Of a stretch of DNA of 47,872 nt, positions 3,343 to 26,387 are shown one piece after another. The DNA comes from an uncultured Alphaproteobacteria bacterium. Its GTDB lineage: Bacteria > Pseudomonadota > Alphaproteobacteria > Micavibrionales > CSBR16-224. The notes below the pieces were generated by a model. That model saw nothing but the letters and a program-made list of their open reading frames with translations. It made no database searches and was not told the DNA's origin. The stretch lies in NCBI GenBank assembly GCA_937941575.1, contig CALDHH010000001.1:1-47872 (forward strand), in the 5' to 3' direction. The position numbers and the translations under genes are program-made. The first letter of the stretch is position 1; every line of letters starts with the position of its first letter.

Positions 3343-4329
3343 ATGGACAAAGAAAACGTAAATATATCAGAAGTTGAAGCTGGACAAAGAGTCGATAAGA
3401 TTCTTAAAGATAGTTTCCAAAATCTATCAAGAGCAAGATTACAGGATTTAATTAAATCAGGTGATATTACTTGCAATGGTAAAAAAACAAAACCTTCTTA
3501 TAAGGTGAAACTGGGTGAATTATTAGAAATTAATATTCCAGAGCCAATTGCTGATATTCCTGAACCTCAAGATATCCCGTTAGATATAGTATATGAAGAT
3601 GATGATTTACTTGTAATCAATAAAGCAGTTGGAATGGTTGTACATCCAGCCGCAGGAAATTGGGATAAAACATTGGTGAATGCATTATTATTCCATTGTG
3701 GTGATAATCTATCTGGTATCGGCGGGGTAAAAAGACCCGGTATTGTGCATAGATTAGATAAAGATACATCTGGATTAATGATAGTTGCCAAAAATGATAA
3801 AGCTCACCAATCTTTGTCGAAACAATTGGAAGTTAGAAGTCTAACTAGAATATATCACGCAATTGTTTGGGGTTTGCCCAACCCAACTTCTGGAGTGATT
3901 GAAGGCAATATCATCAGAAGTAAGACCAATCGTAAAAAAATGACGATGATTGATAAAGGTGGCAAGACTGCAATTACTAATTATAAATTGATTAGAAATT
4001 TAAATACTAAACTATCTTTGATTGAATGTAAGCTAGAGACTGGCAGAACTCATCAAATTAGAGTGCATATGGCAGCAAAACAAAACTGGCTGGTTGGTGA
4101 CAAGCTTTATGGTCGTACAACAAGTGTTAAATCATTACGAAAAAATATAAATACTACTTGTCTTAATCAAGAGGTGATGGATAGAATACTTGTATTCCCA
4201 AGACAGGCTTTACATGCAACTGAGATTGCATTTGTCCATCCAAGTACGGATGAAATAATGAATTTTAAATCAGAACTTGCAGATGATATGCAAGAATTAT
4301 TAACTATAATAGAAAATGGAATTTTATAA
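3343..4329 (+). CDS. rluD: RluA-family 23S rRNA pseudouridine synthase, RluD-like
   Basis: N-terminal S4-like RNA-binding region (RVDKIL...SRARLQDLIKSGDITCNGK), catalytic motif HRLDKDTSGLMIVAKN, and GRTHQIRVH. Confidence 0.85.
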   Translation: MDKENVNISEVEAGQRVDKILKDSFQNLSRARLQDLIKSGDITCNGKKTKPSYKVKLGELLEINIPEPIADIPEPQDIPLDIVYEDDDLLVINKAVGMVVHPAAGNWDKTLVNALLFHCGDNLSGIGGVKRPGIVHRLDKDTSGLMIVAKNDKAHQSLSKQLEVRSLTRIYHAIVWGLPNPTSGVIEGNIIRSKTNRKKMTMIDKGGKTAITNYKLIRNLNTKLSLIECKLETGRTHQIRVHMAAKQNWLVGDKLYGRTTSVKSLRKNINTTCLNQEVMDRILVFPRQALHATEIAFVHPSTDEIMNFKSELADDMQELLTIIENGIL

Positions 4330-5459
4330 TGGAAATTATTATTGCTCTAGGATTGGTGGTATTAGCATCAATTATTATCATGTATGCCTGCGAATCATTT
4401 GAGGATTCTGCCGATTATCTTGGTCGAAATATGAAACCAGGTATTAAGGGTGCTACAATTAATGCAATTGGATCATCTTTGCCTGAATTATTCACTACGA
4501 TGGCATTATTGTTTATCTACCATGATGAAGGTGGTTTTGCCGCAGGTATTGCAACAACTGCTGGCTCTGCTGTGTTTAATGCAATTGTAATTCCGATGCT
4601 TTGTATATTTGTTATTCGCTATAAAGGTGTTGTGGTTGATAATAATGTTGCAAAAGCAAAAAGAGTTTATAAAAGAGTAACCGAAGTTGCGATTGATAAG
4701 CCTAGCGTTCTGCGTGATGGTCTATTCCTTTTATTTGCAGAAATCGTATTGATTGTATTCTTGGGCGGAACTGAGATGGCTTGGTGGATGGGTGGAGCAT
4801 TAATTGTTGTCTATTTATGCTATTTTGCTTTTCTTATGCGTGGATTTAGCAATGGCAGCATTGATGAACCAGAAGATGATGATGACGAATATGATGATGG
4901 CGAAGATAAACCATCAAAATTAAAAGCATTGCTTACATTTGATTTTAACCATCTCTTTTATAATGGTGTATCGTTTAATAATAAAAGAGCTTGGGTTGTG
5001 TTATCATTTTCAGTAACTGTGATTGGTTTTGCATGTGTAATATTGGCGGAAGCAGTAATGATGAGCGCCAGAGCATTAGGCGTACCAGCATTCTTTACAG
5101 CTATAATATTAGCAGCCGCAGCATCATCAGTTCCAGATACGATCCTATCAATGAAAGACGCAGTTAAAGGTCAATATGATGATGCAATATCTAATGCATT
5201 GGGTAGTAACATATTTGATATTACAGTGGCTTTAGGTCTACCATTAATGATTTATGGTTTATTATACGGCAATGTAAGCTTGGGTAGTAATGAAGATATT
5301 CAATTCTTGCGCATAGTATTAGTTGCAACCACGGTTTGTGTATTGGCAATATTTTTACTTCAGAAAAAATTGAATATTAGAACCGCTTATGCTTTTGGTG
5401 CAATCTACCTATCTTGGCTTGGTTATGTTATTTACAAAGGGCTTCAAACTATGGCTTAA
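4329..5459 (+). CDS. Na+/Ca2+ exchanger (CaCA family, YrbG-like) membrane protein
   Basis: Two alpha-repeat signatures (GSSLPELFTT and ASSVPDTILS), about 10 hydrophobic helices, and a central acidic loop EPEDDDDEYDDGED. The start overlaps the rluD stop (TAATG). Confidence 0.8.
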   Translation: MEIIIALGLVVLASIIIMYACESFEDSADYLGRNMKPGIKGATINAIGSSLPELFTTMALLFIYHDEGGFAAGIATTAGSAVFNAIVIPMLCIFVIRYKGVVVDNNVAKAKRVYKRVTEVAIDKPSVLRDGLFLLFAEIVLIVFLGGTEMAWWMGGALIVVYLCYFAFLMRGFSNGSIDEPEDDDDEYDDGEDKPSKLKALLTFDFNHLFYNGVSFNNKRAWVVLSFSVTVIGFACVILAEAVMMSARALGVPAFFTAIILAAAASSVPDTILSMKDAVKGQYDDAISNALGSNIFDITVALGLPLMIYGLLYGNVSLGSNEDIQFLRIVLVATTVCVLAIFLLQKKLNIRTAYAFGAIYLSWLGYVIYKGLQTMA

Positions 5460-5489
5460 TGGAATATCTTTTAAATAGTACAATAATTA

Positions 5490-5525
5490 AGGCTTCTATT
5501 GATAATCCAATAGAGGCCTTTTTTA
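5490..5525 (+). terminator. Rho-independent terminator after the CaCA gene
   Basis: The stem aggcttctattg / caatagaggcct is followed by a T-run (tttttt). Confidence 0.6.
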
Positions 5526-5619
5526 TAAATTTAACATTGCTTATAATTTAGGGGCAATATATTATTGTGATAGAAGTTAAGTTATTAATTAATGAATTTA
5601 AATCTTATAGGAGTTTAAA

Positions 5620-6210
5620 ATGGCAATTAGTCTAGCTAAAGGTTCCAAAGTTAATATATTAGAAGAATATAAAAACTTAAATAATATTATTGTTGCATTG
5701 GGTTGGGAAGCACCAGACGATATTGGTGGAGTAACTTTGGATTTGGATGCATCAGCATTCCTTTTAAACCGAGATAATAGAGTAAGATTTGATAATGATT
5801 TTATATTTTATAATGAATTAAGCGGAGAAAATGGATCTGTTGTGCATAAAGGCGATAGTGAAGAAGGTGGAAGCGGTGGCGATGATGAAGAAATTCATAT
5901 ATCTCTGCGTGATCTGCCTTTGGACGTTATGAAAGTTTCATTTGCGGTTAGTATCCATGATGCCAAAGATAAAAGGCAAGATTTTTCAATGGTTAAAAAT
6001 GCGTATATCCGAGTTATCAATAAAGATAATAACCAAGAAATTGCAAGATTTGATTTAACCGAATATGAAGATCCAATGCTGGCAGGTATTATAATTGGTG
6101 AGATGGAACGTGACCTTGATACTTGGCAATTTAAAGCTTTGGGAGAATCTGTCGAAGACGGATTATTCAGAATTGCATATAATTACGGCGTTAATATTGC
6201 CCCTATGTAA
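5620..6210 (+). CDS. terD: TerD-domain stress protein (calcium-binding TerD/TerE/TerZ family)
   Basis: End-to-end resemblance to canonical TerD: MAISLAKGSKVNI..., LGWE...DLDASAFLLN...DFIFYN...GSVVHKGDSEEGGSGGDDEEI (Ca-binding acidic loop), VSFAVSIHDA, AYIRVIN..EIARFDL, and GVNI at the C-terminus. SD AGGAG precedes the start. Confidence 0.92.
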   Translation: MAISLAKGSKVNILEEYKNLNNIIVALGWEAPDDIGGVTLDLDASAFLLNRDNRVRFDNDFIFYNELSGENGSVVHKGDSEEGGSGGDDEEIHISLRDLPLDVMKVSFAVSIHDAKDKRQDFSMVKNAYIRVINKDNNQEIARFDLTEYEDPMLAGIIIGEMERDLDTWQFKALGESVEDGLFRIAYNYGVNIAPM

Positions 6211-6212
6211 TC

Positions 6213-6241
6213 TTGACATATAGGTAGTATTCTGTTATCTT
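6213..6241 (+). promoter_or_regulatory. Putative sigma70-type promoter for the paralog pair
   Basis: TTGACA (6213-6218), a 17-nt spacer, then TATCTT (6236-6241), starting 3 nt after the terD stop. Confidence 0.35.
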
Positions 6242-6272
6242 CTTTTCAAAACAAAGAGAAGGTTATTAGACA

Positions 6273-6881
6273 TTGTCAAAAAAGCTAACTAACAAACAAA
6301 AAGAAAATATAAAGTCAGTTGTTAAAAAATGGAATACTGATGCTAATAAATCTAGCTCAAATCTTAGTAAGCTGGTGATCGGATCAACAGGTGCGAATGC
6401 TGGTGTTGGTATAATTGATTTGGCCCTTTTTGGTGGATCATTTACTGCCATAAACGGTTTACACGCTTTACTTTGTGGTTATTTTACGAAAAATGAATTG
6501 GCCAAAAAAGATTTTACCAATTCCGCCAGACAGAGAGTATCGGCAAGGAATCTATATAAGATTATTTTATTAGAAATGGATAAAAAAGCTGAAGAATTAG
6601 TAGGGGAATTCGAAGCCACATTAACCCCCTCAGATAGAAAAGAAGCGATCTTAAAAGAGCTGAAAGCAATAGCAGAAGAATCCAATATGCTATCTCCAAT
6701 GTTTGATATCGAAGCAGGAATATTACCCGATGATAAAAATGATAGATATCACTTTAACTCAGTGGCTTTATCAAGAGCAGTAAAGAAGAAAAACCTGAAG
6801 CCAAATCTAGATGGATTCTTGATACAAGAAAAAAATAGGAAAAATATGAGATCTTTAAATAAGAATGGCTTTGGAACTTAA
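6273..6881 (+). CDS. Hypothetical protein with a glycine-rich hydrophobic hairpin, paralog 1 of a tandem pair
   Basis: TTG start with GAAGG about 10 nt upstream. Lys-rich N-terminus SKKLTNKQKENIKSVVKKWN, hydrophobic hairpin LVIGSTGANAGVGIIDLALFGGSFTAINGLHALLCGYF, a helical C-terminal domain, and the ending LNKNGFGT. About 60% identical and collinear with the next ORF. Confidence 0.6.
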   Translation: MSKKLTNKQKENIKSVVKKWNTDANKSSSNLSKLVIGSTGANAGVGIIDLALFGGSFTAINGLHALLCGYFTKNELAKKDFTNSARQRVSARNLYKIILLEMDKKAEELVGEFEATLTPSDRKEAILKELKAIAEESNMLSPMFDIEAGILPDDKNDRYHFNSVALSRAVKKKNLKPNLDGFLIQEKNRKNMRSLNKNGFGT

Positions 6882-6944
6882 GCCTAATGGATAGATATTA
6901 CCTGCTGTGTTAAAAATTATTTGGAATTATTTAAGGAAATTACA

Positions 6945-7553
6945 GTGTCAAAAAAGCTAACTAAAGATCAAAAAGAAAATATCAAAGCTGTCGTTAAAAA
7001 ATGGAACTCATATTCTACTAAGTCTAGATCAGGGATAAATAAGCTATTTATTGGGGCAACAGGTACAAATGTTGGGCTTGGTTTGATTGATATAGCACTT
7101 TTTGGCGGCTCGTTTACTGTTTTGAATTGTGTATCTGCTATATGGCTTGGTTATTTTACTAAAGATGAATTTTCTAAGACAGAATTTACAAATTCTGCTT
7201 GGCAATTAATATCAGCAAGAGAGCTATATATGAGAATTTTGCTGGAAATGGATAAAGAAGTTGCTAAATTAACTAGTGAATTTAATATTATAGGAATAGG
7301 AAGAGATAGAAAAATAGAAATTATAAAAGAATTAGAAGAGATATCAGAGGAATCTAATGCTCTATCACCAATGTTCGATATCAAGTCTAGATCAATACCA
7401 GAGAATAAAGAAAATAAATACCATTTCCACTCGGTAGATTTATTAAGATTAGTAAAAAAGAAAAACCTAGAGTCAAATCTAGACGGATTCTTGGCACAAG
7501 AAAAAACTAGACAAAACATGAAATCCTTAAATAAAAATGGTTTTGGTACTTGA
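6945..7553 (+). CDS. Hypothetical protein with a glycine-rich hydrophobic hairpin, paralog 2 of a tandem pair
   Basis: The track ORF starts at TTG 6921, but the homologous start is GTG 6945 (V/M-SKKLTKDQKENIKAVVKKWN), matching the start context of paralog 1 (tgtcaaaaaagctaacta). Same architecture and the same C-terminus LNKNGFGT. Confidence 0.6.
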   Translation: MSKKLTKDQKENIKAVVKKWNSYSTKSRSGINKLFIGATGTNVGLGLIDIALFGGSFTVLNCVSAIWLGYFTKDEFSKTEFTNSAWQLISARELYMRILLEMDKEVAKLTSEFNIIGIGRDRKIEIIKELEEISEESNALSPMFDIKSRSIPENKENKYHFHSVDLLRLVKKKNLESNLDGFLAQEKTRQNMKSLNKNGFGT

Positions 7554-7734: not shown

Positions 7735-8835
7735 ATGAACAAAGTTTTAAAATTTTTGGCAAGACCAGACATATTTTTTTATACATTAATATGGCTGATG
7801 TTCTTATTGGTTATGGGGACGGTCACTCAAAAAACAATTGGCCTATATCAGGCTCAAGAAAGATTTTTTTCTTCAAATATCCTATGGCTATTCGGGGTGC
7901 TACCAACACCGGGCGGCATGCCAACAATGGCAATTGTCTTTATTGGTTTGACTTCAAAGCTATTAATCGAAGAATGGAATATAAGAAAGCTTGGAACAAT
8001 CACGGTTCATATTGGGGCAATGCTTTTATTATTGGGAGGTTTTATAACTGGCATATATTCACAAGAAGGAAATATGGTGATTAAAGAAGGTGATAGTGCT
8101 GGTTTTATATCAGATTACTATGATGTTGAATTTGCGATATCAAATGCGGAGACTGGCAAAGAAATATTCATTCATGATTTCTCAAAAGATAAAGCCATCA
8201 AATTAATAAAGACTGATATTGCGGAATTTAAAATCATTCAATATTTTGATAATTGTAGCTTGCTAAAAAGAACGGGTGAGATTGATGAGAATCTAAGAGC
8301 AATGGCGACCATATTCTCTTTTCAAAAAGCTCCATTAGACAAACAAGCAGAAAATAATACGGTTTGTATTCAATATAGAATTGAAGGTGAAGAAGATAAT
8401 GATGGGATATATCAGATATTCGAAGATATGCCGATTATTCAAACTTTCACCAAAAATGATATTAAATACCATATCGAAATTAGAAAAAAGAGAACTTACC
8501 TACCATTTGCAATCGAACTAATAGATTTTGAAAAGCAATCATATGGTGGAATTAATATGGCAAAATCATATTCATCAGATGTTATTTTAAAAGATAATGG
8601 TATTGAATGGAAAAGCTTAATTTCAATGAATGAGCCATTGCGTTACAAAGGATATGTTTTTTATCAATCATCTTTCTTTGTTAATCAAAGGGGCGAAGAA
8701 GTGACTGTTTTAGCAGTCGTGCATAATATTGGCAGAATGTTCCCTTATATCTCAAGCATAATTTTAACCTTGGGCCTGTTAATCCATATCCTGCAATCTG
8801 TTCCTGCAATGATCAGGAGAAGAAATGCCAAGTAA
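7735..8835 (+). CDS. ccsB: Cytochrome c biogenesis system II protein, ResB/Ccs1 family (short form)
   Basis: N-terminal TM helices with a conserved His (TVHIGAMLLLLGG), a large soluble segment, a C-terminal ...SYSSDVILKDNG...MNEPLRYKGYVFYQSSF... motif, and a last TM helix. It overlaps ccsA by 11 nt. Confidence 0.75.
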   Translation: MNKVLKFLARPDIFFYTLIWLMFLLVMGTVTQKTIGLYQAQERFFSSNILWLFGVLPTPGGMPTMAIVFIGLTSKLLIEEWNIRKLGTITVHIGAMLLLLGGFITGIYSQEGNMVIKEGDSAGFISDYYDVEFAISNAETGKEIFIHDFSKDKAIKLIKTDIAEFKIIQYFDNCSLLKRTGEIDENLRAMATIFSFQKAPLDKQAENNTVCIQYRIEGEEDNDGIYQIFEDMPIIQTFTKNDIKYHIEIRKKRTYLPFAIELIDFEKQSYGGINMAKSYSSDVILKDNGIEWKSLISMNEPLRYKGYVFYQSSFFVNQRGEEVTVLAVVHNIGRMFPYISSIILTLGLLIHILQSVPAMIRRRNAK

Positions 8836-10666
8836 ATTATTTTCTCTATTATCATTCATTTTATTTATATTGCTATCTATCCCAGCAATGGCAGATAATA
8901 AGCCATTTATAATCGATACTATTCCAATTCAACATGAAGGTAGGATAAAACCATTATCTACATATTCTGAAGTGTTACTGCTAAAAACCTATGGCAAAAA
9001 AAGCTTTAATGAAATGTCATCAGAACAGTTCTTAACGGAATTATTATTGGATAGTAAAAATGCTTTAAAAAGACCTATATTCAATATCGCTAATCCAGAT
9101 ATAGTTCATTTATTGGGTTTAGAATATGATAGTAATCATAAGTATAATTTTATTGAATTATTGCAATCAATGTCCAGCAGAATGGAAATGATTAATAAGT
9201 TAAACGAGCTAGACCCTGCAAAGCTTACAGGATCACAAAGTCAGTTATTAAATCTATATATAAATTTGATGGAATATTTTGAGATCGCAAGGTCTTTATC
9301 TTTGGTAAAATATGAGTTTGAAATTAATAATATCGAAGTCTCAGAATTGCTTAATGTTAATATGGGAGATAAATTAAATTATCTCGATATGATCCAAAGA
9401 AAGGCTAGGTATAAACAGGTATTTCATAAATTAAGAGAATATTCTAAACCTGCCCAAGATGATATATTAAAAATAGGCGAAAAACTTCGGGTATTAAGTC
9501 GTGATAAAAATGCTAAAATATTCAGAGTAATGCCAGCGCAAGGAGTAAGAAAAGATAATACTTGGTTCTCGCCATGGGAAGTAATGAATATGGGAGAAGG
9601 AACCCCAGAGACTGCAAAATTAATATCCCTTTGGACTGATCTTGCTGTTGCTTATCGAGTTAAAGATGAAGAACTTTGGAATAAATCATATCTTGAAATT
9701 ATAGGCATTACATCGAAATATATTGACCCAAATAAAACTTATTTTGAGAAAATATATAATAGCTTTGATTTGTTTAAAATAAGTACTGGCTTATATCTAA
9801 TCGCATTGCTTTTAATCGGCTTATACGCATTCTCAGGTAAGTTAGTTATTTTAAAAGTAAGCAATGTAATAATAATGTCTGCTTTAATAATACATGGTTT
9901 GGGCTTGCTATCTCGTATGTATATTATGGGCAGACCACCTGTGACCACATTATATGAATCAATATTATTTGTTGGCTTTATCTCGGTATTATTCAGCATG
10001 TTATTAGAATATAGAAATAAGAATAGCATCGGTAGCTTAATTGCAGCATTCACAGGAAGCTTCTTTTTATTCTTAAGCATTAAATATGTTGGTGACGGTG
10101 ATAGCCTCGGTGTATTAGTCGCTGTTTTGAACACTAATTTCTGGCTTGCAACCCATGTTGTAACCATAACAATTGGTTACGGGGCTTGTTTTGTGGCTGG
10201 CTTATTAGCTCATATATATTTAATCCAGAAAAGTTTTAATTTCCAAGATAAGATAAGCCATAATTCGACATTTAATAACATGATTGGAGTTAGCTTGATT
10301 GCTTTATTTTTCTCAATCTTGGGAACGATATTAGGTGGTATTTGGGCGGATCAATCATGGGGTAGATTCTGGGGCTGGGATCCAAAAGAAAATGGAGCAA
10401 TGTTTATCTGCCTTTGGTTAATTACCCTATTACATGGAAAATTAGCAGGACAGTTAAAACCAATTATATTTGCCTATGGTATGGTTCTAACTAATATTGT
10501 TGTTGTTTTGGCTTGGTTCGGGGTTAATCTGCTTGGGATAGGTCTTCATTCATATGGGTTTATTGATTCTGTTGCTACAAATATTGTATTATTCATTATT
10601 ATTGAGTTATCATTTATAATATTTATTATCTCTGCCAGACAATTAAGGAAGAAGAATGAAGTATAA
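8825..10666 (+). CDS. ccsA: Cytochrome c biogenesis system II haem-handling protein CcsA/ResC with a long N-terminal periplasmic extension
   Basis: Trp-rich WWD motif WGRFWGWDPKENGA, flanking His residues (ATHVVTITIGYG, TLLHGKLAG), and multiple TM helices. A signal peptide plus about a 330-aa extra N-terminal domain precede the core. Confidence 0.85.
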   Translation: MPSKLFSLLSFILFILLSIPAMADNKPFIIDTIPIQHEGRIKPLSTYSEVLLLKTYGKKSFNEMSSEQFLTELLLDSKNALKRPIFNIANPDIVHLLGLEYDSNHKYNFIELLQSMSSRMEMINKLNELDPAKLTGSQSQLLNLYINLMEYFEIARSLSLVKYEFEINNIEVSELLNVNMGDKLNYLDMIQRKARYKQVFHKLREYSKPAQDDILKIGEKLRVLSRDKNAKIFRVMPAQGVRKDNTWFSPWEVMNMGEGTPETAKLISLWTDLAVAYRVKDEELWNKSYLEIIGITSKYIDPNKTYFEKIYNSFDLFKISTGLYLIALLLIGLYAFSGKLVILKVSNVIIMSALIIHGLGLLSRMYIMGRPPVTTLYESILFVGFISVLFSMLLEYRNKNSIGSLIAAFTGSFFLFLSIKYVGDGDSLGVLVAVLNTNFWLATHVVTITIGYGACFVAGLLAHIYLIQKSFNFQDKISHNSTFNNMIGVSLIALFFSILGTILGGIWADQSWGRFWGWDPKENGAMFICLWLITLLHGKLAGQLKPIIFAYGMVLTNIVVVLAWFGVNLLGIGLHSYGFIDSVATNIVLFIIIELSFIIFIISARQLRKKNEV

Positions 10667-11204
10667 AATCATTGTTATATTAGTAATTCTAATTTCCTCT
10701 GTAATTATTGTTAATTACGATAAAAATATATTCTCAACTAATGATACTAGGTTAGAGCAAGTAAAATTTAACAAGATGGATGCAGTTGATTTTCCATTTA
10801 AAGATTTAAGCGGTGATAATTTCCATCTATTTGATATTAAAGATAAAACAATATTACTTCATTTTTGGGCTTCTTGGTGCGGAATCTGTAAGGTTGAATT
10901 TCCAGCTTTACTAGATTTGGTTCATAAAGATCCCAATCTAGTATTCTTGGCAGTAGCAACCGATGATGAAATTGAAGATGCTGTAAAATTCTTATCAGTC
11001 ATGACGAGAAGACATCCAGATAAAGTTAATAATGGCCGAGTATATTTAACTTGGGATAGAGATAGTGAGATTTCAATTAAAACTTATAATGTTAAAAGAG
11101 TGCCAGAAACCTTTGTAATTAATAAAGATTTTAAAATTTTTGATAAAATAATTGGTAACCAAGATTGGTATAGCAAGGAAATCAGAGACAGATTAAAGGA
11201 ATGA
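10656..11204 (+). CDS. Thioredoxin-fold thiol:disulfide oxidoreductase (ResA/CcsX/TlpA-like)
   Basis: N-terminal anchor and CxxC in FWASWCGICKVEFP. It overlaps ccsA by 11 nt, consistent with an apocytochrome-reducing partner. Confidence 0.75.
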   Translation: MKYKIIVILVILISSVIIVNYDKNIFSTNDTRLEQVKFNKMDAVDFPFKDLSGDNFHLFDIKDKTILLHFWASWCGICKVEFPALLDLVHKDPNLVFLAVATDDEIEDAVKFLSVMTRRHPDKVNNGRVYLTWDRDSEISIKTYNVKRVPETFVINKDFKIFDKIIGNQDWYSKEIRDRLKE

Positions 11205-17850: not shown

Positions 17851-18582
17851 TTATTCTATTACGTTTATAATTCCTGCAAATTTTTTGTTTTTTGCAATTA
17901 GTTTCAAATTTTCCTTTGATAGGCTGCCATTTTTTACACTTATATAATGGTAGCTATCTATTTTAGATAGTCTGGTTATTAAGTTTTCAAGGCTATCGAT
18001 CAATTCCCCGTCTTTATATAATTCAAAGACAGGAGTAGAGGTTATTGCTCTTATCTTGGCAATCTGCTCATTGCTTAACGCCATCCAGTTATTTATACCG
18101 CCAATGACAATATTATATTCTTCTTCTGCTTTAGTAAGAGTACTGATTTCTTCCATAAAGGTGTAATATTCTTCTATATCTTTAGAATCAATATTTAGGT
18201 TTAATCTAATAGAGGTAATGCTGTTACCAAGCATTTTCCATGTTTTGGCATTCTCTTTGATCTTGCTTAAGATAAGTTCCTGATCTCTTACACCATTTAT
18301 ATCATATACTAAGGTCAGCATTCTTTGAGCAAATAGATGGGCTTCATCTGGATTAGGGGTGAATTTAATAGAATCATCAGCTTCTTTTTCAAAACTACCT
18401 TGATAAACATAGACAGAATCATCTGATTCTGGCGCATTTTTAAAATTACCCTTTAAGTATTGAATACCGATATAATAGCTTCGGTCCTGATTCTTACCAA
18501 AATCCATTTTCTTAGAGAAATGTATAATTGAGCCACCAATTAAAACACATAAGACAACGCCGAATATTTCTTTTATTTTCAT
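17851..18582 (-). CDS. Hypothetical membrane-anchored or secreted protein (243 aa), co-oriented 13 nt upstream of bcp
   Basis: N-terminal hydrophobic helix IFGVVLCVLIGGSIIHF and no domain I can name. Confidence 0.5.
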   Translation of the reverse strand: MKIKEIFGVVLCVLIGGSIIHFSKKMDFGKNQDRSYYIGIQYLKGNFKNAPESDDSVYVYQGSFEKEADDSIKFTPNPDEAHLFAQRMLTLVYDINGVRDQELILSKIKENAKTWKMLGNSITSIRLNLNIDSKDIEEYYTFMEEISTLTKAEEEYNIVIGGINNWMALSNEQIAKIRAITSTPVFELYKDGELIDSLENLITRLSKIDSYHYISVKNGSLSKENLKLIAKNKKFAGIINVIE

Positions 18583-18711
18583 ATTACTAAGTCCTTAATA
18601 AATATATAATTTCAATTAATTTTATAATATAAAAAAAAGTAATTTTCAAGACACTCATTATTGTGTATTATATATAAATTAATAAATAGTTCGGATATGT
18701 AAAAATAAATC

Positions 18712-18740
18712 TTGACATAAGCGAATGGCTTGTGTATAAA
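18712..18740 (+). promoter_or_regulatory. Near-consensus sigma70 promoter of the TelA-like operon
   Basis: TTGACA (18712-18717), a 17-nt spacer, then TATAAA (18735-18740). About a 110-120 nt AT-rich leader follows before the AAGGAG SD and ATG at 18861. Confidence 0.5.
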
Positions 18741-18860
18741 GTTATTCAAGTAAGGTTAAATGATTTATATTTCTAACACCGAATTGTTATAAAAATAAAT
18801 TTAACTATGGTGAATATAAATTAACTAAAATATATAAATAAGCATTAAGGAGCATATATA

Positions 18861-20384
18861 ATGTCAGACGATGATAGAAAAGTTGAAATTCAAGAAGAAA
18901 TTACTAAAGTAAAAGAAGAACGTCGTGAAAGAGGAGATCTAAGCGTTGAAGTAAAGGATGTAGAACTTCCTGATGCTACGGATGTCTTGGGTAATGATAT
19001 TGAAGATGACGGTAAGCCTTTAACTAGACAGGAACGTGCTGAAGCTGCTTCGTCAACTGATTTAAAACCTTACGCAGAAGAGACGGGTAAAAACAAAGAA
19101 ATATATGATGCCTTGATTAGCCATCTGCATAATTTTCCAGATGATATTGATTCAGTTACTGAATTTGGTTCAAAGCCAGATGATGAACTTGCAACTACAT
19201 CAGAGATTTTACAAGAGCAAATGGGTGACTTTACAACTATCATGGAAAATGCAGCTAAATCTTTAGAAGATTTCAAGCAAACAAAAGATGATAAACATTC
19301 AAAAGAACTTGATGAGAAATTCAAGTTATTTAGTAAAGAGAAAGCAGAAGAGCTTGCAAAAATTGGTACATCACATGCGAAGGGTTTCTTTAGTAAGTTT
19401 TTGAACAAGGCTGGTCTTCAAGGTAGTAGTGAAAAATTACAATATGAAATCACTCAAGGTATTGAAGATACAATTCCATTAGTTGAAATTAAAATGAAGT
19501 ATTTAAAACATGATATGGAATCTATTTTGGCTTCAATGGACCCAATGAATGATAATTTAAATGAACTTGCGAAAGCAACATTGAGAGCAATTCAGCAGAT
19601 CAATTACTTTGAAAAAGCCGGAGAAGAATTATTAGAGAGATATACAAAAGTTGTTGATACTGAGGATACAATGGAAATGGGTTATATCCAAGAAGCTCAA
19701 CATTTAAACGATGGTAGAGCTGCTGATGTTGAACAAGCTATGAATATGTTGCAAAGAAGATTAACTGATTTAGCTAAAAGTAGACTTAAAAATCAGGATA
19801 GGCTTACAAAGCTTAAATTGAACAGAAGTGATCTGAAAAACATGGAATATACTATCAAGAATATTAAAGCGAATGAACTACCAGGCTTTAGACAGAACTT
19901 GACAGAAATGAAGCGTAACTTGGCTACTCTAACAATGGCTACAAGATTAGAAGAAGCACAAGATGTTATACAAGAAATAGAACAAAGAAATCATGAGATT
20001 GCTTTGGGTACTCATGAAGCTGTTCAAAACCAAGCTGAAAGAGCCCTTGATTCTATGGATGATGTTTTGGAAAGATCAAGAGAAACTCTTGCTGCTGCTG
20101 AAGATTCTGGTCAAGATAAAGAAGAAAGAAATGCTGCTCTTGAAGAATATAGAGGCAAGTTTAAAGATGCTACTCAAGATCTTATTGATGCTGAAAAAGA
20201 TGCTGAAAGCAGAGGGTCCCTTGGAAGCGCAGATGATACAGAAGAGAGAAAAAGAAGACAAGAAAAGTTCAATGAAAAATCTGCTAATAATAAATCAAAA
20301 GGTAATGCAGATGTCTTGGATGATGTTTTGGGCAAAAGCGAAGTTGCTCAACCAAAGAAAAAGGCTCCTGGAAGATCTAGGTAG
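18861..20384 (+). CDS. Divergent TelA-like (toxic anion resistance family) protein with acidic N- and C-terminal tails
   Basis: By eye against remembered TelA members (B. subtilis YceH/YaaN, RK2 KlaB): N-terminal ...SVTEFGSKPDDELATTSEILQEQ (family FG..aQ....S..mL), GFFSKFLNKAGL...KLQYEITQGIEDTI, LKHDMESILA...NLNELAKATLRAIQQINYFEKAGEELLE, and LQRRLTDLAKSRL..N...L. The core is all-helical. Not verified by HMM. Confidence 0.5.
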   Translation: MSDDDRKVEIQEEITKVKEERRERGDLSVEVKDVELPDATDVLGNDIEDDGKPLTRQERAEAASSTDLKPYAEETGKNKEIYDALISHLHNFPDDIDSVTEFGSKPDDELATTSEILQEQMGDFTTIMENAAKSLEDFKQTKDDKHSKELDEKFKLFSKEKAEELAKIGTSHAKGFFSKFLNKAGLQGSSEKLQYEITQGIEDTIPLVEIKMKYLKHDMESILASMDPMNDNLNELAKATLRAIQQINYFEKAGEELLERYTKVVDTEDTMEMGYIQEAQHLNDGRAADVEQAMNMLQRRLTDLAKSRLKNQDRLTKLKLNRSDLKNMEYTIKNIKANELPGFRQNLTEMKRNLATLTMATRLEEAQDVIQEIEQRNHEIALGTHEAVQNQAERALDSMDDVLERSRETLAAAEDSGQDKEERNAALEEYRGKFKDATQDLIDAEKDAESRGSLGSADDTEERKRRQEKFNEKSANNKSKGNADVLDDVLGKSEVAQPKKKAPGRSR

Positions 20385-20400
20385 TTTAGATTATTAATTT

Positions 20401-20434
20401 AAATGGCTGGTAATATTCATAATATCAGCCATTT
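20401..20434 (+). terminator. Long hairpin after the TelA-like gene (attenuator or partial terminator)
   Basis: aaatggctg / cagccattt (9 bp) plus an inner atatt / aatat stem, followed by a weak T-rich tail. The next gene starts 64 nt later. Confidence 0.4.
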
Positions 20435-20497
20435 ATTTTAATTTACAATAAAGTTTATGTTAAAATTTAATCTTGATAAAAGATTTAGGAGATAAAA

Positions 20498-21742
20498 ATG
20501 GGTATGTTAGATAAATTCCGCAGTGGTGAAGATGATAAAAGTGAAAAAAAGAATGATGGTGAAAGTATATTTAATTCAAGTTTTGACTTAAAAGATGATT
20601 ACCAAAGCTTCTATGCAGAAATTATGCGTTCAAGCGTATTTGATTTTAGAAATCCTATTTTGAGACAGCAAGCGGATGATAATATTGTTGAAGTACAACG
20701 TGTTGCGACTAAACTTGATGATAAAGATAAAAATGGTAATGACCAATGGGTTTTAACTGACCATATCGTTTATGATTTTAATGGTAAGGAACTTAGGAAT
20801 ACTGAGCCAGTTCTTGAAGGTGGTGAAACAATAAGCTTCCATGCTGTATTACTTAAAATGGGTTTATTTGAAGCTGAAAATCAGGCAAGAGAAGATTCAA
20901 GCCCAGAAGAAGTGATTGAAAAGCGTAAAGCAATAGGGGATGAATATTTTGTTAAATCTGCCTATATAGAAAATTTTGTTTTTGATGAGAATTTTATTCC
21001 TACTAAATTAGAAAAAGGTCAGATCATCACAAAAGGTATCTTTATTCATTTAGATTTAATAGAAGCAGAACAAATACGTAATGCAAATGAAGAAGACCCA
21101 AAATCTGTTCGTAACATGGAAAAAGGTGTTGCATTAGAAAGTTTTAATAAAATTGCAAAATCAAGAACGAATTTAGATGATATGCTTACTAAAGTAGTTG
21201 CCCTACAGCTTATGGATAAATTTGTTGGTCATATTGAGTTAGTAGAGCATAGTTTAAAAGAATTTATCGATAATTCAAAATCAGGTATTGATGCAACTGC
21301 AAATTCTTTTAAGCAATCAGCAAGTGCAGCATTAGAAGATGCGGATGATATCTTACCAAAATTGGCAAAAGAAGGTGTGGATACTAATCCTTTTGAGAAA
21401 TTTACAGCTCAGGTTGAATTATATATTTCTCTGATGTATTCAAAAGTGATGATGGATGATTTACGCCAAGGCAATCTAAATAATGCTTCAGAAAAACGTG
21501 ATTTGATAAAAGATGAAGTTAATAACGCGGAAGAACTATTTAGAAAAATGGGCGCAACTGATGGTGATGTAGATAGATTAAGAGGATTTGTTAATTCCCC
21601 AGAAGATTTAACAGTACCAAAAGAAATCTCAACATTTGTTGAAAGATATAAACAAAAAAGTAGCTTTGTAAAAAATGTAATGAAAAAAAGTCCAGCAAAG
21701 GCAAAAGTTCAGACAGTAATGAGCTCTGTTGCTGGTAAATAA
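20498..21742 (+). CDS. Hypothetical protein (414 aa), operon partner 2 of the TelA-like gene
   Basis: AGGAG SD. No TM helix or signal peptide. A beta-rich N-terminal module is followed by a long helical region and a Lys-rich tail. No recognisable family. Confidence 0.6.
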   Translation: MGMLDKFRSGEDDKSEKKNDGESIFNSSFDLKDDYQSFYAEIMRSSVFDFRNPILRQQADDNIVEVQRVATKLDDKDKNGNDQWVLTDHIVYDFNGKELRNTEPVLEGGETISFHAVLLKMGLFEAENQAREDSSPEEVIEKRKAIGDEYFVKSAYIENFVFDENFIPTKLEKGQIITKGIFIHLDLIEAEQIRNANEEDPKSVRNMEKGVALESFNKIAKSRTNLDDMLTKVVALQLMDKFVGHIELVEHSLKEFIDNSKSGIDATANSFKQSASAALEDADDILPKLAKEGVDTNPFEKFTAQVELYISLMYSKVMMDDLRQGNLNNASEKRDLIKDEVNNAEELFRKMGATDGDVDRLRGFVNSPEDLTVPKEISTFVERYKQKSSFVKNVMKKSPAKAKVQTVMSSVAGK

Positions 21743-21771
21743 AGTTGCTTGATTATATTGGAGGAAATTAT

Positions 21772-22995
21772 ATGAGTTGGTTCTCAAAAAAAGATGTTGC
21801 TGTTGAAAATGCGAAAGAATTAAAAATATCTGATTTTTTCCCAGAAGAGATAAAAGATCTGGGAATTTCAGGGGATAAGAATTATTTTCCATCTGAAACT
21901 ATTGTTACTAATTCATATTATCTAGGTAATGATAAGAAGGTTTCTATATTTTTAACAATTGATATTACAGATGGTGATGCTATCGTAAAACTTGCTCATG
22001 TTAGGTCTCCTATGAATTCGGTAAAAGGAGAAGGTCCTATTATAGATACTGATTATGGAGATGTTGATGCGGTATTACAGGTTGCAGCAAAGTTTGAAGA
22101 ATTTGCCAGAGCAAAAGTAAAAGCAAAAGAATGGCTAAGAGTTGAAAAACCATCTGAGACCAAAAACTATAGAGAATATGCAACAGAACAAGGTATCTTA
22201 GTCGATACTATGGGTAGATTACATGATCGCAATAATATCTTTGATAATGCATGGTTTGATGAAAGCCAATTTCAAGCTGATTTTAACAAGCAAGCTCAAA
22301 TAGAAGAAAAAGCCAATAACCAAACTTGGGCAAATAGTATTATTGCTCAGAAATTGGAAGTATCTATTGCTGAAATAGCAACGAAGTTAGAGAATAATCC
22401 AGAAGATTATGAAGGATTTGAGGAGCTTAATAAGTATAAAGAGCACCTGACATTATCAGAATTTTCTAATTTGTTAGAAATTAAAGAAAAGTATTTTAAA
22501 AATATAGATAGTCTGAAATTGATGGAGAGTAAATTACTAGATGCTAATTATTGGTATTTATCAATATTAGATGATGCATCAAAAGGAAAAAATATAAGCT
22601 TTGATCTTCAAACTTTAGAAGTAAGTAAGGCTGAGATTTTTGAAATTGCAAGAGACTTGAAATTTAATGCAGAAGATAGAGCGATGCTTGAATCCTTAAT
22701 AATGAATAAGGAAGAAATTCGTATAAGACATTGTGATGTAGAATCTATTTACGCAAAGAGAATTACCCCATTGGTAGAAAAAGCAAAAGAAACCGTAAAA
22801 GCAAAAGAAGCTGCAGATTATACTGTAATGTTAGAAGAAGCCTATGCAAGGAATGCTCAGAAAGACGACGATCTTGCTAATAATAAGCTTGAAATTAAAT
22901 TAAAGGTAGAGCCAAGTGATGCTTCTAAGCTTGCTAGTCCTCCAAAGATTCCTAACAAGCCTAAAAATAAAACTGGCAGTACTGGTCCTGGTTAA
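21772..22995 (+). CDS. Hypothetical protein (~407 aa), operon partner 3 of the TelA-like gene
   Basis: The track ORF begins at TTG 21745, but ATG 21772 has a GGAGGA SD 7-8 nt upstream (MSWFSKKD...). Beta-rich N-terminal module, long helical region, and a Pro/Lys-rich tail PPKIPNKPKNKTGSTGPG. Confidence 0.6.
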   Translation: MSWFSKKDVAVENAKELKISDFFPEEIKDLGISGDKNYFPSETIVTNSYYLGNDKKVSIFLTIDITDGDAIVKLAHVRSPMNSVKGEGPIIDTDYGDVDAVLQVAAKFEEFARAKVKAKEWLRVEKPSETKNYREYATEQGILVDTMGRLHDRNNIFDNAWFDESQFQADFNKQAQIEEKANNQTWANSIIAQKLEVSIAEIATKLENNPEDYEGFEELNKYKEHLTLSEFSNLLEIKEKYFKNIDSLKLMESKLLDANYWYLSILDDASKGKNISFDLQTLEVSKAEIFEIARDLKFNAEDRAMLESLIMNKEEIRIRHCDVESIYAKRITPLVEKAKETVKAKEAADYTVMLEEAYARNAQKDDDLANNKLEIKLKVEPSDASKLASPPKIPNKPKNKTGSTGPG

Positions 22996-23010: not shown

Positions 23011-25398
23011 TTAAATTTGTTCGCCATATGGAACCCAGATATTTTTAACTTGGGTTGAATGCATTAGATATTCTTTTTCTAAATATTCATCTTCGTTAAA
23101 TAAATTGCGTTCCATGCCGTTATTTACCCAAGTTTGCTTTAGATTACCAATTGATAATTCTTCTGTAATTTGGCTAAGCTTTTTATCATTACTGAAACAC
23201 CATAGAGCATCAAGATTATCATGTTCTGCTAATGTTTTAATAAGATCACTATGATTACCAGTTACAATGTTAATTACGCCTGCTGGTAAATCAGAACATT
23301 CTAATATTTGATAGAAATCAGTTGCTGATAAGCTATATTGTTCAGATGGAATAATAATTGCTGTATTACCCATTGCGATCGCTGGCATTACCAATGATAT
23401 AAATCCAAGTAATGGGTTTTCATTTGGACAAATCATCCCAATTGCCCCAATTGATTCTTGCATTGCAATTGCGATTGCTTTCATTGGTGGAGTGTGAACT
23501 CTGCCTTCAAATTTATCACAATATGCGCCATAGCTGAATATACGTTTAATACTGGTTTCAACTTCTAACTTTGCATCTTTGGCAGAGCAACCAGTCATAT
23601 CAACAATACGTTTGGCAAATTCATCAGATCGCTTATCTAAATTCTCAGCAATATAATAAATTATTTGAGCCCGTAAGTGATGGGCAGAATTATTCCATGA
23701 TTTATAAGCTGATTTCGCAGCTTCCACAGCATTTCTGATATCTTTTCTGCTACCCAATCCAACTTCACCAACCAATAGACCTTTTGGATTTAATATATCC
23801 ATATTGTAATTACCATCGGGTCTTGCTTGTTTGCCACCAATATACATTTTAGCAGTTTCATCAATTTGATTATTATCTAATTTACCAGTTTTTGTAATTG
23901 TAGTTATTTCTTTGGCTGGTTTTAATTTTGATAGATATCTTGGTTTTAAATAAGCATACATACCTTCAAATCCACCTTCACGACCAAAACCAGATTCTTT
24001 GTAACCACCAAAGCCGCAAGAAGCATCAAATAAATTGGCACTATTAATCCAAACAACACCGGATTTGATTTTCGGGGCAACATCCAAAGCCATATTAATA
24101 TTATCTGACCAGATATTGGCAGCAAGCCCATATTTTGAATTATTGGCAAGTTCAACCGCTTCATCAGGAGATCTAAAGCTCTGTACAGTTAGGACTGGAC
24201 CAAATATTTCATTATTTACAATCGCAGATGAGCTATAAACATCAGTTAAGATAGTAGGGCGGTAATAACAACCTTTATCAGGGCAGTTTTCCAATTGAAT
24301 AATTGTCGCACCATCTTTAACCGCATCATTAACCATATCTGTAATACGCTTTAACTGTGTATCATTAACAACGGTTCCCATATCAATCGTTTTATCAAGG
24401 GGAGATCCCAAACGTAATTTATTCATTCTGGTGGTTAGTTTGGTGATTACTTTATCTTTAACGCCTTCTTGTACTAATAATCTTGAACCTGCGCAGCATA
24501 CTTCACCTTGGTTAAACCAGATACTATCGACAATACCTTCAACCGCAGAATCAATATCTGCATCATCGAAGATAATAAATGGTGATTTACCACCAAGCTC
24601 CAATGTTAATGTTTTACCAGTACCAGCAGTATTTTTACGGATAAGTTTACCAATCTCGGTTGAGCCAGTAAACGCAATCTTCTTAATGTCTTTATGTTCT
24701 GTAATTAAGCCACCTGTTACACCATCACCTTGGACGATATTGATAACTCCATCTGGAATACCGGCTTCAACACAGATCTCTGCGAATAATATTGATGTTA
24801 AAGGAGTCTCTTCGGCAGGTTTCAATATAACTGCATTACCAGCAGCAATTGCAGGTGCGATTTTCCAAGCCAACATTAAAAATGGGAAATTCCAAGGAAT
24901 GATTTGTCCAACAATTCCAATCGCTTCATAATCTTTAAATTCTTTATCTAATATTTGAGCCATACCTGCATGGTAATAAAAATGTCTAATTGCAGTTGGA
25001 ATATCGGCATCTCTAGTCTCACGGATTGACTTACCATTATCTAAGCTCTCTAATACAGCAAATAGTCTTGCATTTTTTTGAATTAATCTTGCAATTGCAT
25101 ATAGATATTTTGCTCTCTCGAAACAGCTTAAACCCTGCCAAGTCTTTAAACCTGCTTGAGCAGACGTAACTGCCATGTCAATTACTTCTTTATCAGCAGC
25201 CTTTGCTTTTCCTAAAATTTCACCATTCTCTGGGTTATTGATTTTAAACTCTTCGCCTGCATCAATCCATTTACCACCGATGAAATGTTTAAAACCTTTA
25301 CTATGGCTTTTTAACCATTTATCAGCTTCACTTCTATCTTCCATAGCAACACCATAATCCATTGTCTCGAAAATTTCTTTTACTTGGTTAGCACTCAT
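23011..25398 (-). CDS. Two-module aldehyde dehydrogenase: a complete ALDH plus a C-terminal truncated ALDH-like module
   Basis: Residues 1 to ~490 have FTGSTEIGK, ELGGKSP, catalytic EVCCAGSR and EIFGPV. Residues ~510-795 repeat the ALDH N-terminal, cofactor-binding part (YIGGK...PNENPLL...AMGNTAIIIPSE...GVINIVTG...) and stop before any catalytic Cys region. Confidence 0.85.
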   Translation of the reverse strand: MSANQVKEIFETMDYGVAMEDRSEADKWLKSHSKGFKHFIGGKWIDAGEEFKINNPENGEILGKAKAADKEVIDMAVTSAQAGLKTWQGLSCFERAKYLYAIARLIQKNARLFAVLESLDNGKSIRETRDADIPTAIRHFYYHAGMAQILDKEFKDYEAIGIVGQIIPWNFPFLMLAWKIAPAIAAGNAVILKPAEETPLTSILFAEICVEAGIPDGVINIVQGDGVTGGLITEHKDIKKIAFTGSTEIGKLIRKNTAGTGKTLTLELGGKSPFIIFDDADIDSAVEGIVDSIWFNQGEVCCAGSRLLVQEGVKDKVITKLTTRMNKLRLGSPLDKTIDMGTVVNDTQLKRITDMVNDAVKDGATIIQLENCPDKGCYYRPTILTDVYSSSAIVNNEIFGPVLTVQSFRSPDEAVELANNSKYGLAANIWSDNINMALDVAPKIKSGVVWINSANLFDASCGFGGYKESGFGREGGFEGMYAYLKPRYLSKLKPAKEITTITKTGKLDNNQIDETAKMYIGGKQARPDGNYNMDILNPKGLLVGEVGLGSRKDIRNAVEAAKSAYKSWNNSAHHLRAQIIYYIAENLDKRSDEFAKRIVDMTGCSAKDAKLEVETSIKRIFSYGAYCDKFEGRVHTPPMKAIAIAMQESIGAIGMICPNENPLLGFISLVMPAIAMGNTAIIIPSEQYSLSATDFYQILECSDLPAGVINIVTGNHSDLIKTLAEHDNLDALWCFSNDKKLSQITEELSIGNLKQTWVNNGMERNLFNEDEYLEKEYLMHSTQVKNIWVPYGEQI

Positions 25399-25409
25399 AA
25401 TAATTCCCC

Positions 25410-26387
25410 TTATCCGATTGGATGTCTGTTAGCTGCAGAATATCTGCCTGTTACAAAATGTTCTAATTGGCGTTCAATATCACCTAATAGGCTAGATGCA
25501 CCAATTCTAAATAAATCAGGCTGTAACCATTCATTACCAAGCTCTTCTTTCATCAAGAATTGGTAACCTAATATATCTTTTGCCTTGCTTATACCGCCTG
25601 CTGGTTTATATCCGATTTTAAAGCCTGTTTGCTCTAAATATTCACGCATCATACGAACCATTATCATTGAGACGTTTAAATTGGCATTTGTGCTTTCTTT
25701 ACCAGTGGATGTTTTAATAAAATCAGCCCCTGCCATCATTGAAATCATGCTAGCTTTGGCAACATTACGCATTGTTGCAAGTTCACCAGTTGCGATGATT
25801 GATTTTAAATGAGCATCACCACATGCTTCTCTATATGCTTTTACTTCATCATATAATGCTTGCCAGTTTTGGGTTAGGACATGTGATCTAGTAATTACAA
25901 TATCAATTTCTTTAGCACCTGCTTTAACCGAAGCTTTAATTTCAGCTAGTTTTGTGCTCATCGGTGATAAACCATGTGGGAAGCCTGTAGATACTGCGGC
26001 TACTGGAATATTTGTACCTTCTAAAGCTTTAACTGCGGTCTCTACCATTTCATGATAAACACAAATTGCACCAGTTGTTATATTTGGTAAGCCTAATTCT
26101 TCTAATAAATGCCTGCTAACTGGAAATTTGGCTTTGTTACAAAGTCTTTTTACTCGTTCAACCGTATCATCACCACTTAATGTAGTTAGATCAATACAAG
26201 TAACAGCTTTTAATAACCAAGCCGCTTGATTAGCTTTTTTAACAGCACGTCTAGTAGTAATAGTTTTAGTTCGGCGCTCAACAGCATTTAAGTTAACGTA
26301 GATATCATCAATCCAATCCAGATTAAGCTCTGTACCCTCGTTACGTTTATGAGCATGATTATCGCTTATTGTATGAAGTTCTACCAT
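25410..26387 (-). CDS. deoC: Deoxyribose-phosphate aldolase, long (eukaryote-like) form
   Basis: Class I aldolase TIM barrel with CIDLTTL, KSIIATGEL, and the Schiff-base Lys in ADFIKTSTGK. 325 aa. Confidence 0.85.
   Translation of the reverse strand: MVELHTISDNHAHKRNEGTELNLDWIDDIYVNLNAVERRTKTITTRRAVKKANQAAWLLKAVTCIDLTTLSGDDTVERVKRLCNKAKFPVSRHLLEELGLPNITTGAICVYHEMVETAVKALEGTNIPVAAVSTGFPHGLSPMSTKLAEIKASVKAGAKEIDIVITRSHVLTQNWQALYDEVKAYREACGDAHLKSIIATGELATMRNVAKASMISMMAGADFIKTSTGKESTNANLNVSMIMVRMMREYLEQTGFKIGYKPAGGISKAKDILGYQFLMKEELGNEWLQPDLFRIGASSLLGDIERQLEHFVTGRYSAANRHPIG

Follow-up and report, generated by a model that had tools for sequence, protein, structure and literature searches.

Organization of the locus

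The window considered here is the whole stretch of 47,872 nucleotides (nt) of contig CALDHH010000001.1 (positions 1 to 47,872 of the forward strand, assembly GCA_937941575.1), which comes from an uncultured alphaproteobacterium of the Micavibrionales. It carries a module of three co-oriented genes, the first of which can be assigned with good support to the TelA toxic anion resistance family, and the second and third are paralogues of one uncharacterized protein family. An earlier reading of the letters of this stretch, made without database searches and referred to below as the original prediction, had described the trio as a three-gene operon in which a divergent TelA-like protein is accompanied by two unfamiliar partners, and had proposed it as a stress or envelope module.

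Gene 1 (18861-20384, forward strand) encodes an acidic and highly divergent TelA-family protein of 507 amino acids (aa) that is predicted to be all-helical. Its ATG is placed 8 nt after the Shine-Dalgarno sequence AAGGAG. Gene 2 (20498-21742, forward strand) encodes a protein of 414 aa and is preceded by AGGAG, 6 nt before the start. Gene 3 (21772-22995, forward strand; 407 aa) is a fast-evolving paralogue of gene 2 and has GGAGG 7 nt upstream of its start codon. The true start of gene 3 is the ATG at 21772 and not the TTG at 21745 chosen by the open reading frame (ORF) finder. The three genes have the good Shine-Dalgarno sites that had been claimed for them, and genes 2 and 3 do lie close together, with 29 nt between the stop codon of the former and the start of the latter.

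Assignment of gene 1 to the TelA family

The TelA family is represented in Pfam by the model PF05816 (toxic anion resistance protein), with a gathering score of 30 bits. Gene 1 does not match this model even at E ≤ 1 and has no significant family match in Pfam, NCBIfam, PADLOC or PHROGs. Its orthologue at the related locus L007 likewise lacks a Pfam TelA match. When 1.84 billion representative proteins were searched exhaustively with phmmer, only three relatives of gene 1 were retrieved, at about 24% identity, and two of them pass PF05816 with 68 and 45 bits. Among the syntenic orthologues the model is matched by 10 of 12, the best of them scoring 68 bits over positions 9-327 of 332. A profile of these ten TelA-matching orthologues was built without gene 1, and gene 1 matches it with 81.3 bits (E 3e-27) from position 22 to 459 of 468. 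The chromosomal position of gene 1 is also orthologous to that of the TelA-like genes of the relatives.

With 10 of the 12 orthologues matching TelA, and with a full-length match of gene 1 to the profile built from them, gene 1 can be regarded as a highly divergent TelA-family protein. The membership is transitive, running through the orthologues, and is well supported; gene 1 ranks among the most divergent members of the family known. The assignment to TelA that had been made by eye was thus correct, given the orthologues and the 81-bit profile match. The check proposed along with it, a TelA-profile search with gene 1, gave no direct PF05816 match and stands only in its transitive form.

Gene 1 also has the build of a TelA protein, that is, all-alpha, soluble, in the range of ~350-500 aa and free of transmembrane (TM) segments, according to hydropathy and to a low-confidence AlphaFold2 (AF2) model that contains long helices only (predicted local distance difference test, pLDDT, 53.7; 4-sequence alignment). 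Beyond this build, gene 1 is extended at both termini by long acidic stretches and carries a basic tail rich in Pro. A word-indexed homologue search with gene 1 returned 0 matches among 8000 candidates, a list that low-complexity words had probably saturated. An identical gene 1 was found on only one other contig (Logan run ERR9287630).

The family of genes 2 and 3

Genes 2 and 3 and about 25 of their homologues have no match in Pfam, NCBIfam, PADLOC, PHROGs or the PDB sequences. The view that neither gene belongs to a recognizable family is therefore borne out, homologues included. PDB searches, by sequence and by profile, gave no match either. The weak matches of the gene-2 family to LPD16 (E 0.015-0.19) come from four closely related homologues only and are treated as noise. 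The word-indexed search with gene 2 found gene 2 itself and nothing else, and a profile of 13 sequences found only three proteins, the database being apparently poor in these proteins from metagenome-assembled genomes (MAGs).

On the other hand, the treatment of the two partners as separate unknowns has to be abandoned. A BLAST comparison of gene 2 with gene 3 returns nothing. Profile-profile alignment (hhalign) joins the gene-3 group to the gene-2 family with a probability of 98.2% (E 4.3e-14, 311 columns), and the third genes of the main clade of related loci to the same family with a probability of 95.8%, over the N-terminal domain. Local iterative searches unite gene 2, gene 3 and the main-clade third genes. 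In pairwise comparisons, gene 3 matches the third gene of locus L002 (BLASTP, E 3e-5), and gene 2 is 35% identical to the gene that follows TelA at the same locus (E 8e-58). These alignments give good support to genes 2 and 3 as divergent paralogues within a single uncharacterized family. The idea that the partners are cryptic copies of TelA was rejected, the hhalign probability between the gene-2 family and the TelA-like family being 0.9%.

The gene-2/gene-3 family comprises at least 40 sequences from about 23 loci. In its members a short aromatic-basic N-terminus leads into an alpha/beta domain, which is followed by a C-terminal helical bundle and, at the end, a basic tail. Genes 2 and 3 have in common the alpha/beta N-domain, the helical bundle and a position directly after the TelA-like gene. 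The first residues of most members are M-x-[WFL]-[WF] and lead into a stretch rich in Lys and Asp (MxWFxKK-like). In an alignment of 13 members the N-domain has the invariant residues W84, E158, F162, P168 and F182 (gene 2 numbering), and the helical bundle contains a D359/R383/Y384 motif. The AF2 model of gene 2 (4-sequence alignment) has a pLDDT of 51.7 and is confident only for residues ~231-393, which correspond to the helical bundle.

Properties of the three proteins

All three proteins are acidic (isoelectric point 4.85-5.0) and end in basic Pro/Lys/Gly-rich tails. None of them contains a hydrophobic segment, the maximum Kyte-Doolittle values in a 19-residue window being 0.27, 0.94 and 1.23 for genes 1, 2 and 3, respectively. 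No TM segments or signal peptides are found in the three proteins, which for genes 2 and 3 had been stated at the outset. The three products are thus firmly predicted to be cytoplasmic and soluble. In family-model scans, no member of the module shows a nuclease, NTPase, protease or other effector domain. Foldseek searches with the low-confidence AF2 models, which were built from 4-sequence alignments, gave no match below E 0.04 and retrieved generic helical bundles only.

Three helical proteins in a row, in a lineage whose relatives are labelled Micavibrio (epibiotic predators), Bdellovibrionales or Rhodospirillales, bring to mind factors of predation or host interaction, possibly exported and including a multi-component alpha-helical pore-forming toxin of the ClyA type. 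ClyA, AhlC, NheA, YaxAB and XaxAB are indeed among the Foldseek matches of both models, and the basic tails of the three proteins could be export signals. However, these matches are not significant (E 0.3-3, TM score 0.1-0.25, low-confidence models), and the proteins have neither a hydrophobic head nor a beta-tongue nor, with Kyte-Doolittle maxima of at most 1.23, the hydrophobicity for membrane insertion that is expected of the ClyA family. Signal peptides are missing and no secretion genes are seen among the annotated neighbours. A role in predation is accordingly considered very unlikely.

Promoter and leader of gene 1

A sigma-70-type promoter precedes gene 1 on the forward strand (18712-18740), with the -35 box TTGACA at 18712-18717, a spacer of 17 nt and the -10 box TATAAA at 18735-18740. 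A generic promoter scan of this AT-rich DNA finds 22 sigma-70-like sites, against 22.5 in shuffled sequence. The scan on its own thus does not set the promoter apart from chance, and the argument for it is its conservation: an element of the form TTGACA-17-TA(A/G)nTT/TATAnA is placed before the TelA-like gene wherever a related locus includes upstream DNA, at G+C contents from 33 to 59%. The near-consensus promoter of the original prediction is therefore retained. In the main clade the -35 box is directly followed by TTATG(T/A)(C/A)AT.

The 5' leader (18741-18860, forward strand) spans the ~120 nt that separate the -10 box from the ATG at 18861, in agreement with the claim of more than 100 nt, and includes the Shine-Dalgarno sequence AAGGAG at 18847-18852. 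The leaders of the main clade contain a box, cGATTA(A/G)GAAAAATA, 8-10 nt after the -10 (L008 4270-4285, L009 3290-3303 and equivalent sites). Its counterpart in the window is a loose gtaaggttaaat at ~18751-18762, which agrees by eye at 8 of 11 positions. The predicted fold of the leader is not beyond chance (z = -0.19) and the leader has no Rfam match; on these two results a riboswitch or similar RNA motif was rejected.

The hairpin and the box between genes 1 and 2

The end of gene 1 is followed by a structure that resembles an intrinsic terminator, namely a hairpin with a 13-bp stem (20401-20434, forward strand) and a T-rich tail, AUUUUAAUUU (20435-20444). The 113-nt spacer between genes 1 and 2 folds with -23.7 kcal/mol (z = -3.95), a stability that none of 200 shuffled sequences reached. 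A stem-loop with a U-run is found at the equivalent site in all 20 loci examined (z from -2.5 to -6.4), and 9 of the 14 hairpin pairs show compensatory double changes in an alignment of 16 loci. A simple terminator scan had missed the hairpin because its stem is poor in G-C pairs. The long hairpin noticed in the original prediction is thus present and conserved, and the covariation identifies it as a probable conserved intrinsic terminator.

Given a conserved terminator at this site, the three genes would form either one operon with attenuation or a pair of transcription units rather than a plain operon. The three co-oriented genes of the operon first proposed stand; its simple form does not, as the terminator separates gene 1 from genes 2 and 3.

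In most loci a second element, the TTTATGAATA box, follows the T-tract of the terminator after ~14-19 nt. The sequence TATGAATA occurs once per locus, at that intergenic position only, in 19 related loci (L007-L026; for example L008 5842 and L012 5544). In the window, the intergenic alignment places a degenerate counterpart, GTTTATGTTAAAA, at 20453-20465 (forward strand). The box and the promoter spacer have TTATGAA in common, and the reverse complement TATTCATA is found in the loop of the window hairpin (20414-20421), which could be chance in AT-rich DNA. A reading of the box as a sigma-70 -10 element was discarded, since the alignment offers, by eye, no acceptable -35 at 16-18 nt. A short upstream ORF (AUG AAU ...) is possible at the box, with a peptide whose length and sequence are not conserved. 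Candidate readings of the TTTATGAATA box are an operator, a promoter element of an unusual kind and the beginning of a tiny upstream ORF, and genes 2 and 3 may alternatively be expressed from a regulated start of their own.

These signals also bear on the proposal that the trio are structural or cytoskeletal proteins, such as a polar or division-site scaffold, unrelated to stress and needed by a Micavibrio-like cell architecture. The strong, near-consensus and conserved promoter suggests abundant constitutive expression, and an internal terminator is typical where one structural subunit is needed in excess. Long helices with acidic low-complexity tails fit the same picture, as does strict vertical inheritance at one locus. 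Nevertheless, there is no match to any known cytoskeletal family, and the TelA family is otherwise tied to stress or resistance phenotypes. The proposal overlaps with the explanation preferred below, both of them invoking a scaffold, and differs from it mainly in the physiological role. As a separate account it is judged unlikely.

Synteny and distribution

Synteny was analysed on the contigs of the three gene 1 relatives, on nine loci of GTDB species genomes and on ten loci from metagenomes. The common order is the TelA-like gene, the gene-2 homologue, zero to two further paralogues and then, in convergent orientation, a double-length aldehyde dehydrogenase (ALDH) and deoxyribose-phosphate aldolase (DeoC). 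In every related locus with upstream DNA the gene-2 homologue lies directly after the TelA-like gene, and the co-occurrence of the three genes in other genomes, on which the original prediction had been staked, is borne out. The partners number from one to three: loci L002 (3807-6504) and L010 (7150-9359) have two extra paralogues, and L011 has none, with 26 nt between its gene-2 homologue and the called ALDH ORF (7221-7248).

The module is found in about 23 independent loci, in alphaproteobacterial MAGs labelled Micavibrio or Rhodospirillales. The labels of the relatives are Micavibrio sp., Rhodospirillales, Rhodospirillaceae, Alphaproteobacteria and 'Bdellovibrionales'. In the NCBI taxonomy Micavibrio belongs to Bdellovibrionota, and GTDB places it in the Alphaproteobacteria. 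No copy of the module was found on plasmids, in phage records or in viral contigs; together with the fixed chromosomal position, this led to the rejection of a mobile-element or phage origin. The view that the module is vertically inherited, chromosomal and lineage-specific is well supported.

The G+C content of the window is 33%, compared with 40-59% in the relatives, from all of which it is about equally distant (ALDH ~60% identical). A gene-2-family scan of one genome per GTDB species retrieved no locus closer than 26% identity to the window, even though the peptide of the window itself conforms to the pattern used, and the source lineage is apparently not among the species genomes covered by the scan.

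In the window, the ALDH (23011-25398, reverse strand; 795 aa, with two ALDH stretches) has Pfam and NCBIfam matches, and DeoC (25410-26387, reverse strand) passes the NCBIfam cut-off. The stop codons of gene 3 and the ALDH are 15 nt apart, and no terminator-like site was found between the two genes. The convergent arrangement recurs in every related locus with downstream DNA, and on this account a functional partnership could be imagined in which the trio regulate or organize deoxyribose and aldehyde catabolism. However, convergent orientation implies separate transcripts, the two groups of genes evolve at very different rates, and the trio have no metabolic or DNA-binding domain. The adjacency can be explained by ancestral synteny within one order, and the partnership is regarded as highly improbable. 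The ALDH and DeoC genes are used as synteny anchors and are not presented as parts of the module.

Neighbouring genes and other genes of the window

The genes that flank the module in the window are those for Bcp, a 243-aa ORF, ALDH and DeoC. The 243-aa ORF (17851-18582, reverse strand) is divergent from gene 1 and has an N-terminal hydrophobic helix. No family match was obtained for it, and the related loci lack a homologue. Logan contig L001 carries an identical copy.

A full-length TerD-domain protein (Pfam E 1.4e-57) is encoded at 5620-6210, in another gene cluster 12.6 kb upstream of the TelA-like gene. The TerD gene is preceded by a Na/Ca exchanger (4329-5459) and followed by two tandem paralogous ORFs of ~200 aa (6273-6881 and 6921-7553), which match each other with 255 bits. 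Both contain a hydrophobic segment rich in Gly, and neither has a family match. The region 4329-7553 (forward strand) may represent a small TerD-centred cluster. No TerD-like gene was found within ~5 kb of the modules of the relatives, and the Pfam models of XpaC, KlaA/TelB, TerB, TerC and TerD have no match to genes 2 and 3 or their homologues. The statement that known TelA companions are absent holds for the operon with respect to XpaC, TelB, TerB and TerC; the window as a whole, with its TerD, is not free of Ter genes.

Other genes of the window include the components of a System II cytochrome c biogenesis pathway (ResB-like, 7735-8835; CcsA-like, 8825-10666), an ORF of the thioredoxin/AhpC-TSA fold directly after the CcsA-like gene (10656-11204), a second such ORF some 6 kb further upstream (917-1483) and an MscS-type channel (1493-2947).

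Evolutionary rate

Comparison of the window with its relatives shows identities of ~60% for ALDH and ~75% for DeoC, against 22-24% for gene 1 and 23-35% for gene 2, gene 3 being barely alignable. In close pairs the ratio of nonsynonymous to synonymous substitution rates (dN/dS) is 0.06-0.33 for genes 1-3 and 0.02-0.04 for ALDH, and gene 3 has the highest value in three of the four pairs. Genes 1-3 are real genes under purifying selection and evolve much faster than their neighbours.

Fast evolution would suit a conflict or defence system, and the trio could be one in which a TelA-like protein and rapidly changing partners sense or block invading elements or toxins. Besides the identity of the trio (22-35%, compared with 60-75% for the neighbours) and a dN/dS 3-10 times that of ALDH, this proposal can draw on the variable number of paralogues (one to three), on the TerD gene elsewhere in the window and on the framing of Ter/TelA as a conflict system that counters phages or xenobiotics (PMC7824862). 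On the other hand, the chromosomal position is fixed and inheritance vertical in all loci, unlike in defence islands, and no copy was found in viral contigs, phage records or plasmids. None of the three proteins matches PADLOC (PADLOC-DB 2.0), effector domains are lacking in every member, dN/dS stays well below 1 and coiled-coil-rich proteins evolve fast without any conflict. Defence is therefore an improbable function for the module.

Proposed function of the module

The explanation that we prefer, and which we put forward as a tentative one, is that of a partner-modulated TelA-like scaffold that acts under the membrane in envelope homeostasis. With good support, gene 1 is expressed from a strong and conserved sigma-70 promoter, and the terminator after gene 1 probably lets only part of the transcription into genes 2 and 3, so that the TelA-like protein should be in excess over its partners. 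The TelA-like protein would be a soluble, all-helical and oligomerizing scaffold that assembles under the inner membrane. The products of genes 2 and 3 would then act as less abundant adaptors or modulators that bring the scaffold to the membrane or hold it back there, in a manner similar to the modulation of TelA by XpaC in Firmicutes. Overall, the module may serve the homeostasis of the envelope or membrane under stress. The name of stress or envelope module given in the original prediction is likewise borrowed from other TelA proteins.

The N-terminal helix with which PspA and Vipp1 bind the membrane begins with MGIFSRF or MGLFDRL. We take the N-terminus of the partners, M-x-[WFL]-[WF], to resemble this helix. 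With respect to the family itself, TelA has been counted among the components from which sub-membrane structures are built (PMC7824862). Envelope-acting agents elicit a response of TelA/YaaN and XpaC, and the Listeria cluster is induced by one of them, the bacteriocin garvicin KS (PMC12791056). In Enterococcus faecium the phenotype of XpaC (daptomycin binding and phospholipid microdomains) needs an intact TelA (PMC6811118), which provides a precedent for an operon partner that modulates TelA at the membrane.

Several points weigh against this explanation. Gene 1 itself does not match PF05816, the AF2 models are poor (pLDDT of 53.7 and 51.7) and Foldseek recovers from them generic helical bundles only. 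The module encodes no membrane protein, and the association of its products with the membrane is argued by analogy. The PspA-like N-terminal motif of the partners is short, and its likeness to PspA and Vipp1 is a tentative lead. For the expression of genes 2 and 3, both read-through and a separate promoter at the TTTATGAATA box remain options. In addition, the biochemistry of TelA itself is, to our knowledge, undefined, and to say that the module works like TelA says little about its mechanism.

A more elaborate version of the preferred scaffold explanation, which we consider possible but rather doubtful, is that of a TelA-based multi-component machine confined to Micavibrio-like Alphaproteobacteria. 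In such a machine the gene-2/gene-3 family would set the place and time of scaffold assembly, and the cis-acting set would consist of the promoter, an operator of the TTATGAAT type and the internal attenuator. It would serve a lineage-specific need, for instance an epibiotic predatory cell cycle. If true, this machine would offer the first defined protein partners from which the function of TelA could be worked out. A search of the literature for links between Micavibrio and TelA or tellurite yielded nothing of relevance.

TelA proteins are widespread and are tied to tolerance of tellurite, bacteriocins, daptomycin and cell-wall antibiotics, while their biochemical role has been obscure for decades. 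The module is a natural variant in which a TelA-like protein has long been locked to one soluble partner family, with conserved control of expression that hints at the relative amounts of the TelA-like protein and its partners. The hosts are mostly uncultured and the function is inferential. If the partners bind the TelA-like protein, the module would provide a tractable soluble system for structural and interaction work, and a test of whether partner-modulated membrane assembly is a general logic of TelA clusters.

Comparison with known systems

For gene 1 the closest known proteins are those of the TelA/KlaB family (PF05816), such as those of RK2 kilA-telAB, Rhodobacter TelA, Listeria TelA (lmo1967), Bacillus YaaN and YceH, and the 10 of 12 gene 1 orthologues that match the family do so over nearly the whole profile. 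Like TelA, gene 1 is predicted to be soluble and all-helical, with ~400-500 aa, and is placed beside a small set of dedicated partner genes. Unlike TelA/KlaB, it falls below Pfam detection, has three phmmer relatives and possesses long acidic extensions and a basic Pro-rich tail. The module also differs from the known TelA clusters (kilA-telAB, xpaC-telA and yceCDEFGH/Ter) in that its partners are not XpaC, KlaA/TelB or Ter proteins.

The Ter system (TerZABCDEF, with TelA as an accessory) is comparable in that TelA is viewed there as a sub-membrane structural component (PMC7824862), and TerD is present in the window. It differs in that the TerD gene is 12.6 kb away and the module has no linked genes for TerB, TerC, vWA/TerF or nucleotide metabolism.

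PspA, Vipp1 (IM30) and ESCRT-III offer a resemblance only. They are soluble helical proteins that assemble at the inner membrane, and their MG[IL]F motif can be set beside the M-x-[WFL]-[WF]-x-K of the partners. A Pfam scan gave no match of the PspA_IM30 or Snf7 profiles to genes 2 and 3 or their homologues, and an ESCRT-III filament appears in Foldseek at rank 46 with a non-significant E of 1.1, from a low-confidence model that makes this a weak test of the fold. Unlike PspA and Vipp1, the partners have an additional alpha/beta N-domain.

A sequence analysis by Suprenant et al. in 2007 reportedly related the major vault protein (MVP) to the TelA family. Such a relation would fit TelA-like proteins as oligomerizing scaffolds. 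Unlike the module proteins, MVP is eukaryotic and much larger, and its vault repeats and shoulder domain are not detected in the module.

The XpaC-TelA (YaaN) two-gene cluster of Firmicutes can also be compared with the module. XpaC is itself a membrane protein, and its gene precedes telA. By contrast, the partners in the module are predicted to be soluble, are encoded downstream, are duplicated and do not match the XpaC model. What the two have in common is a TelA-family gene with a dedicated partner whose biochemistry is obscure, and the XpaC-TelA cluster may be taken as the best functional analogy for the module.

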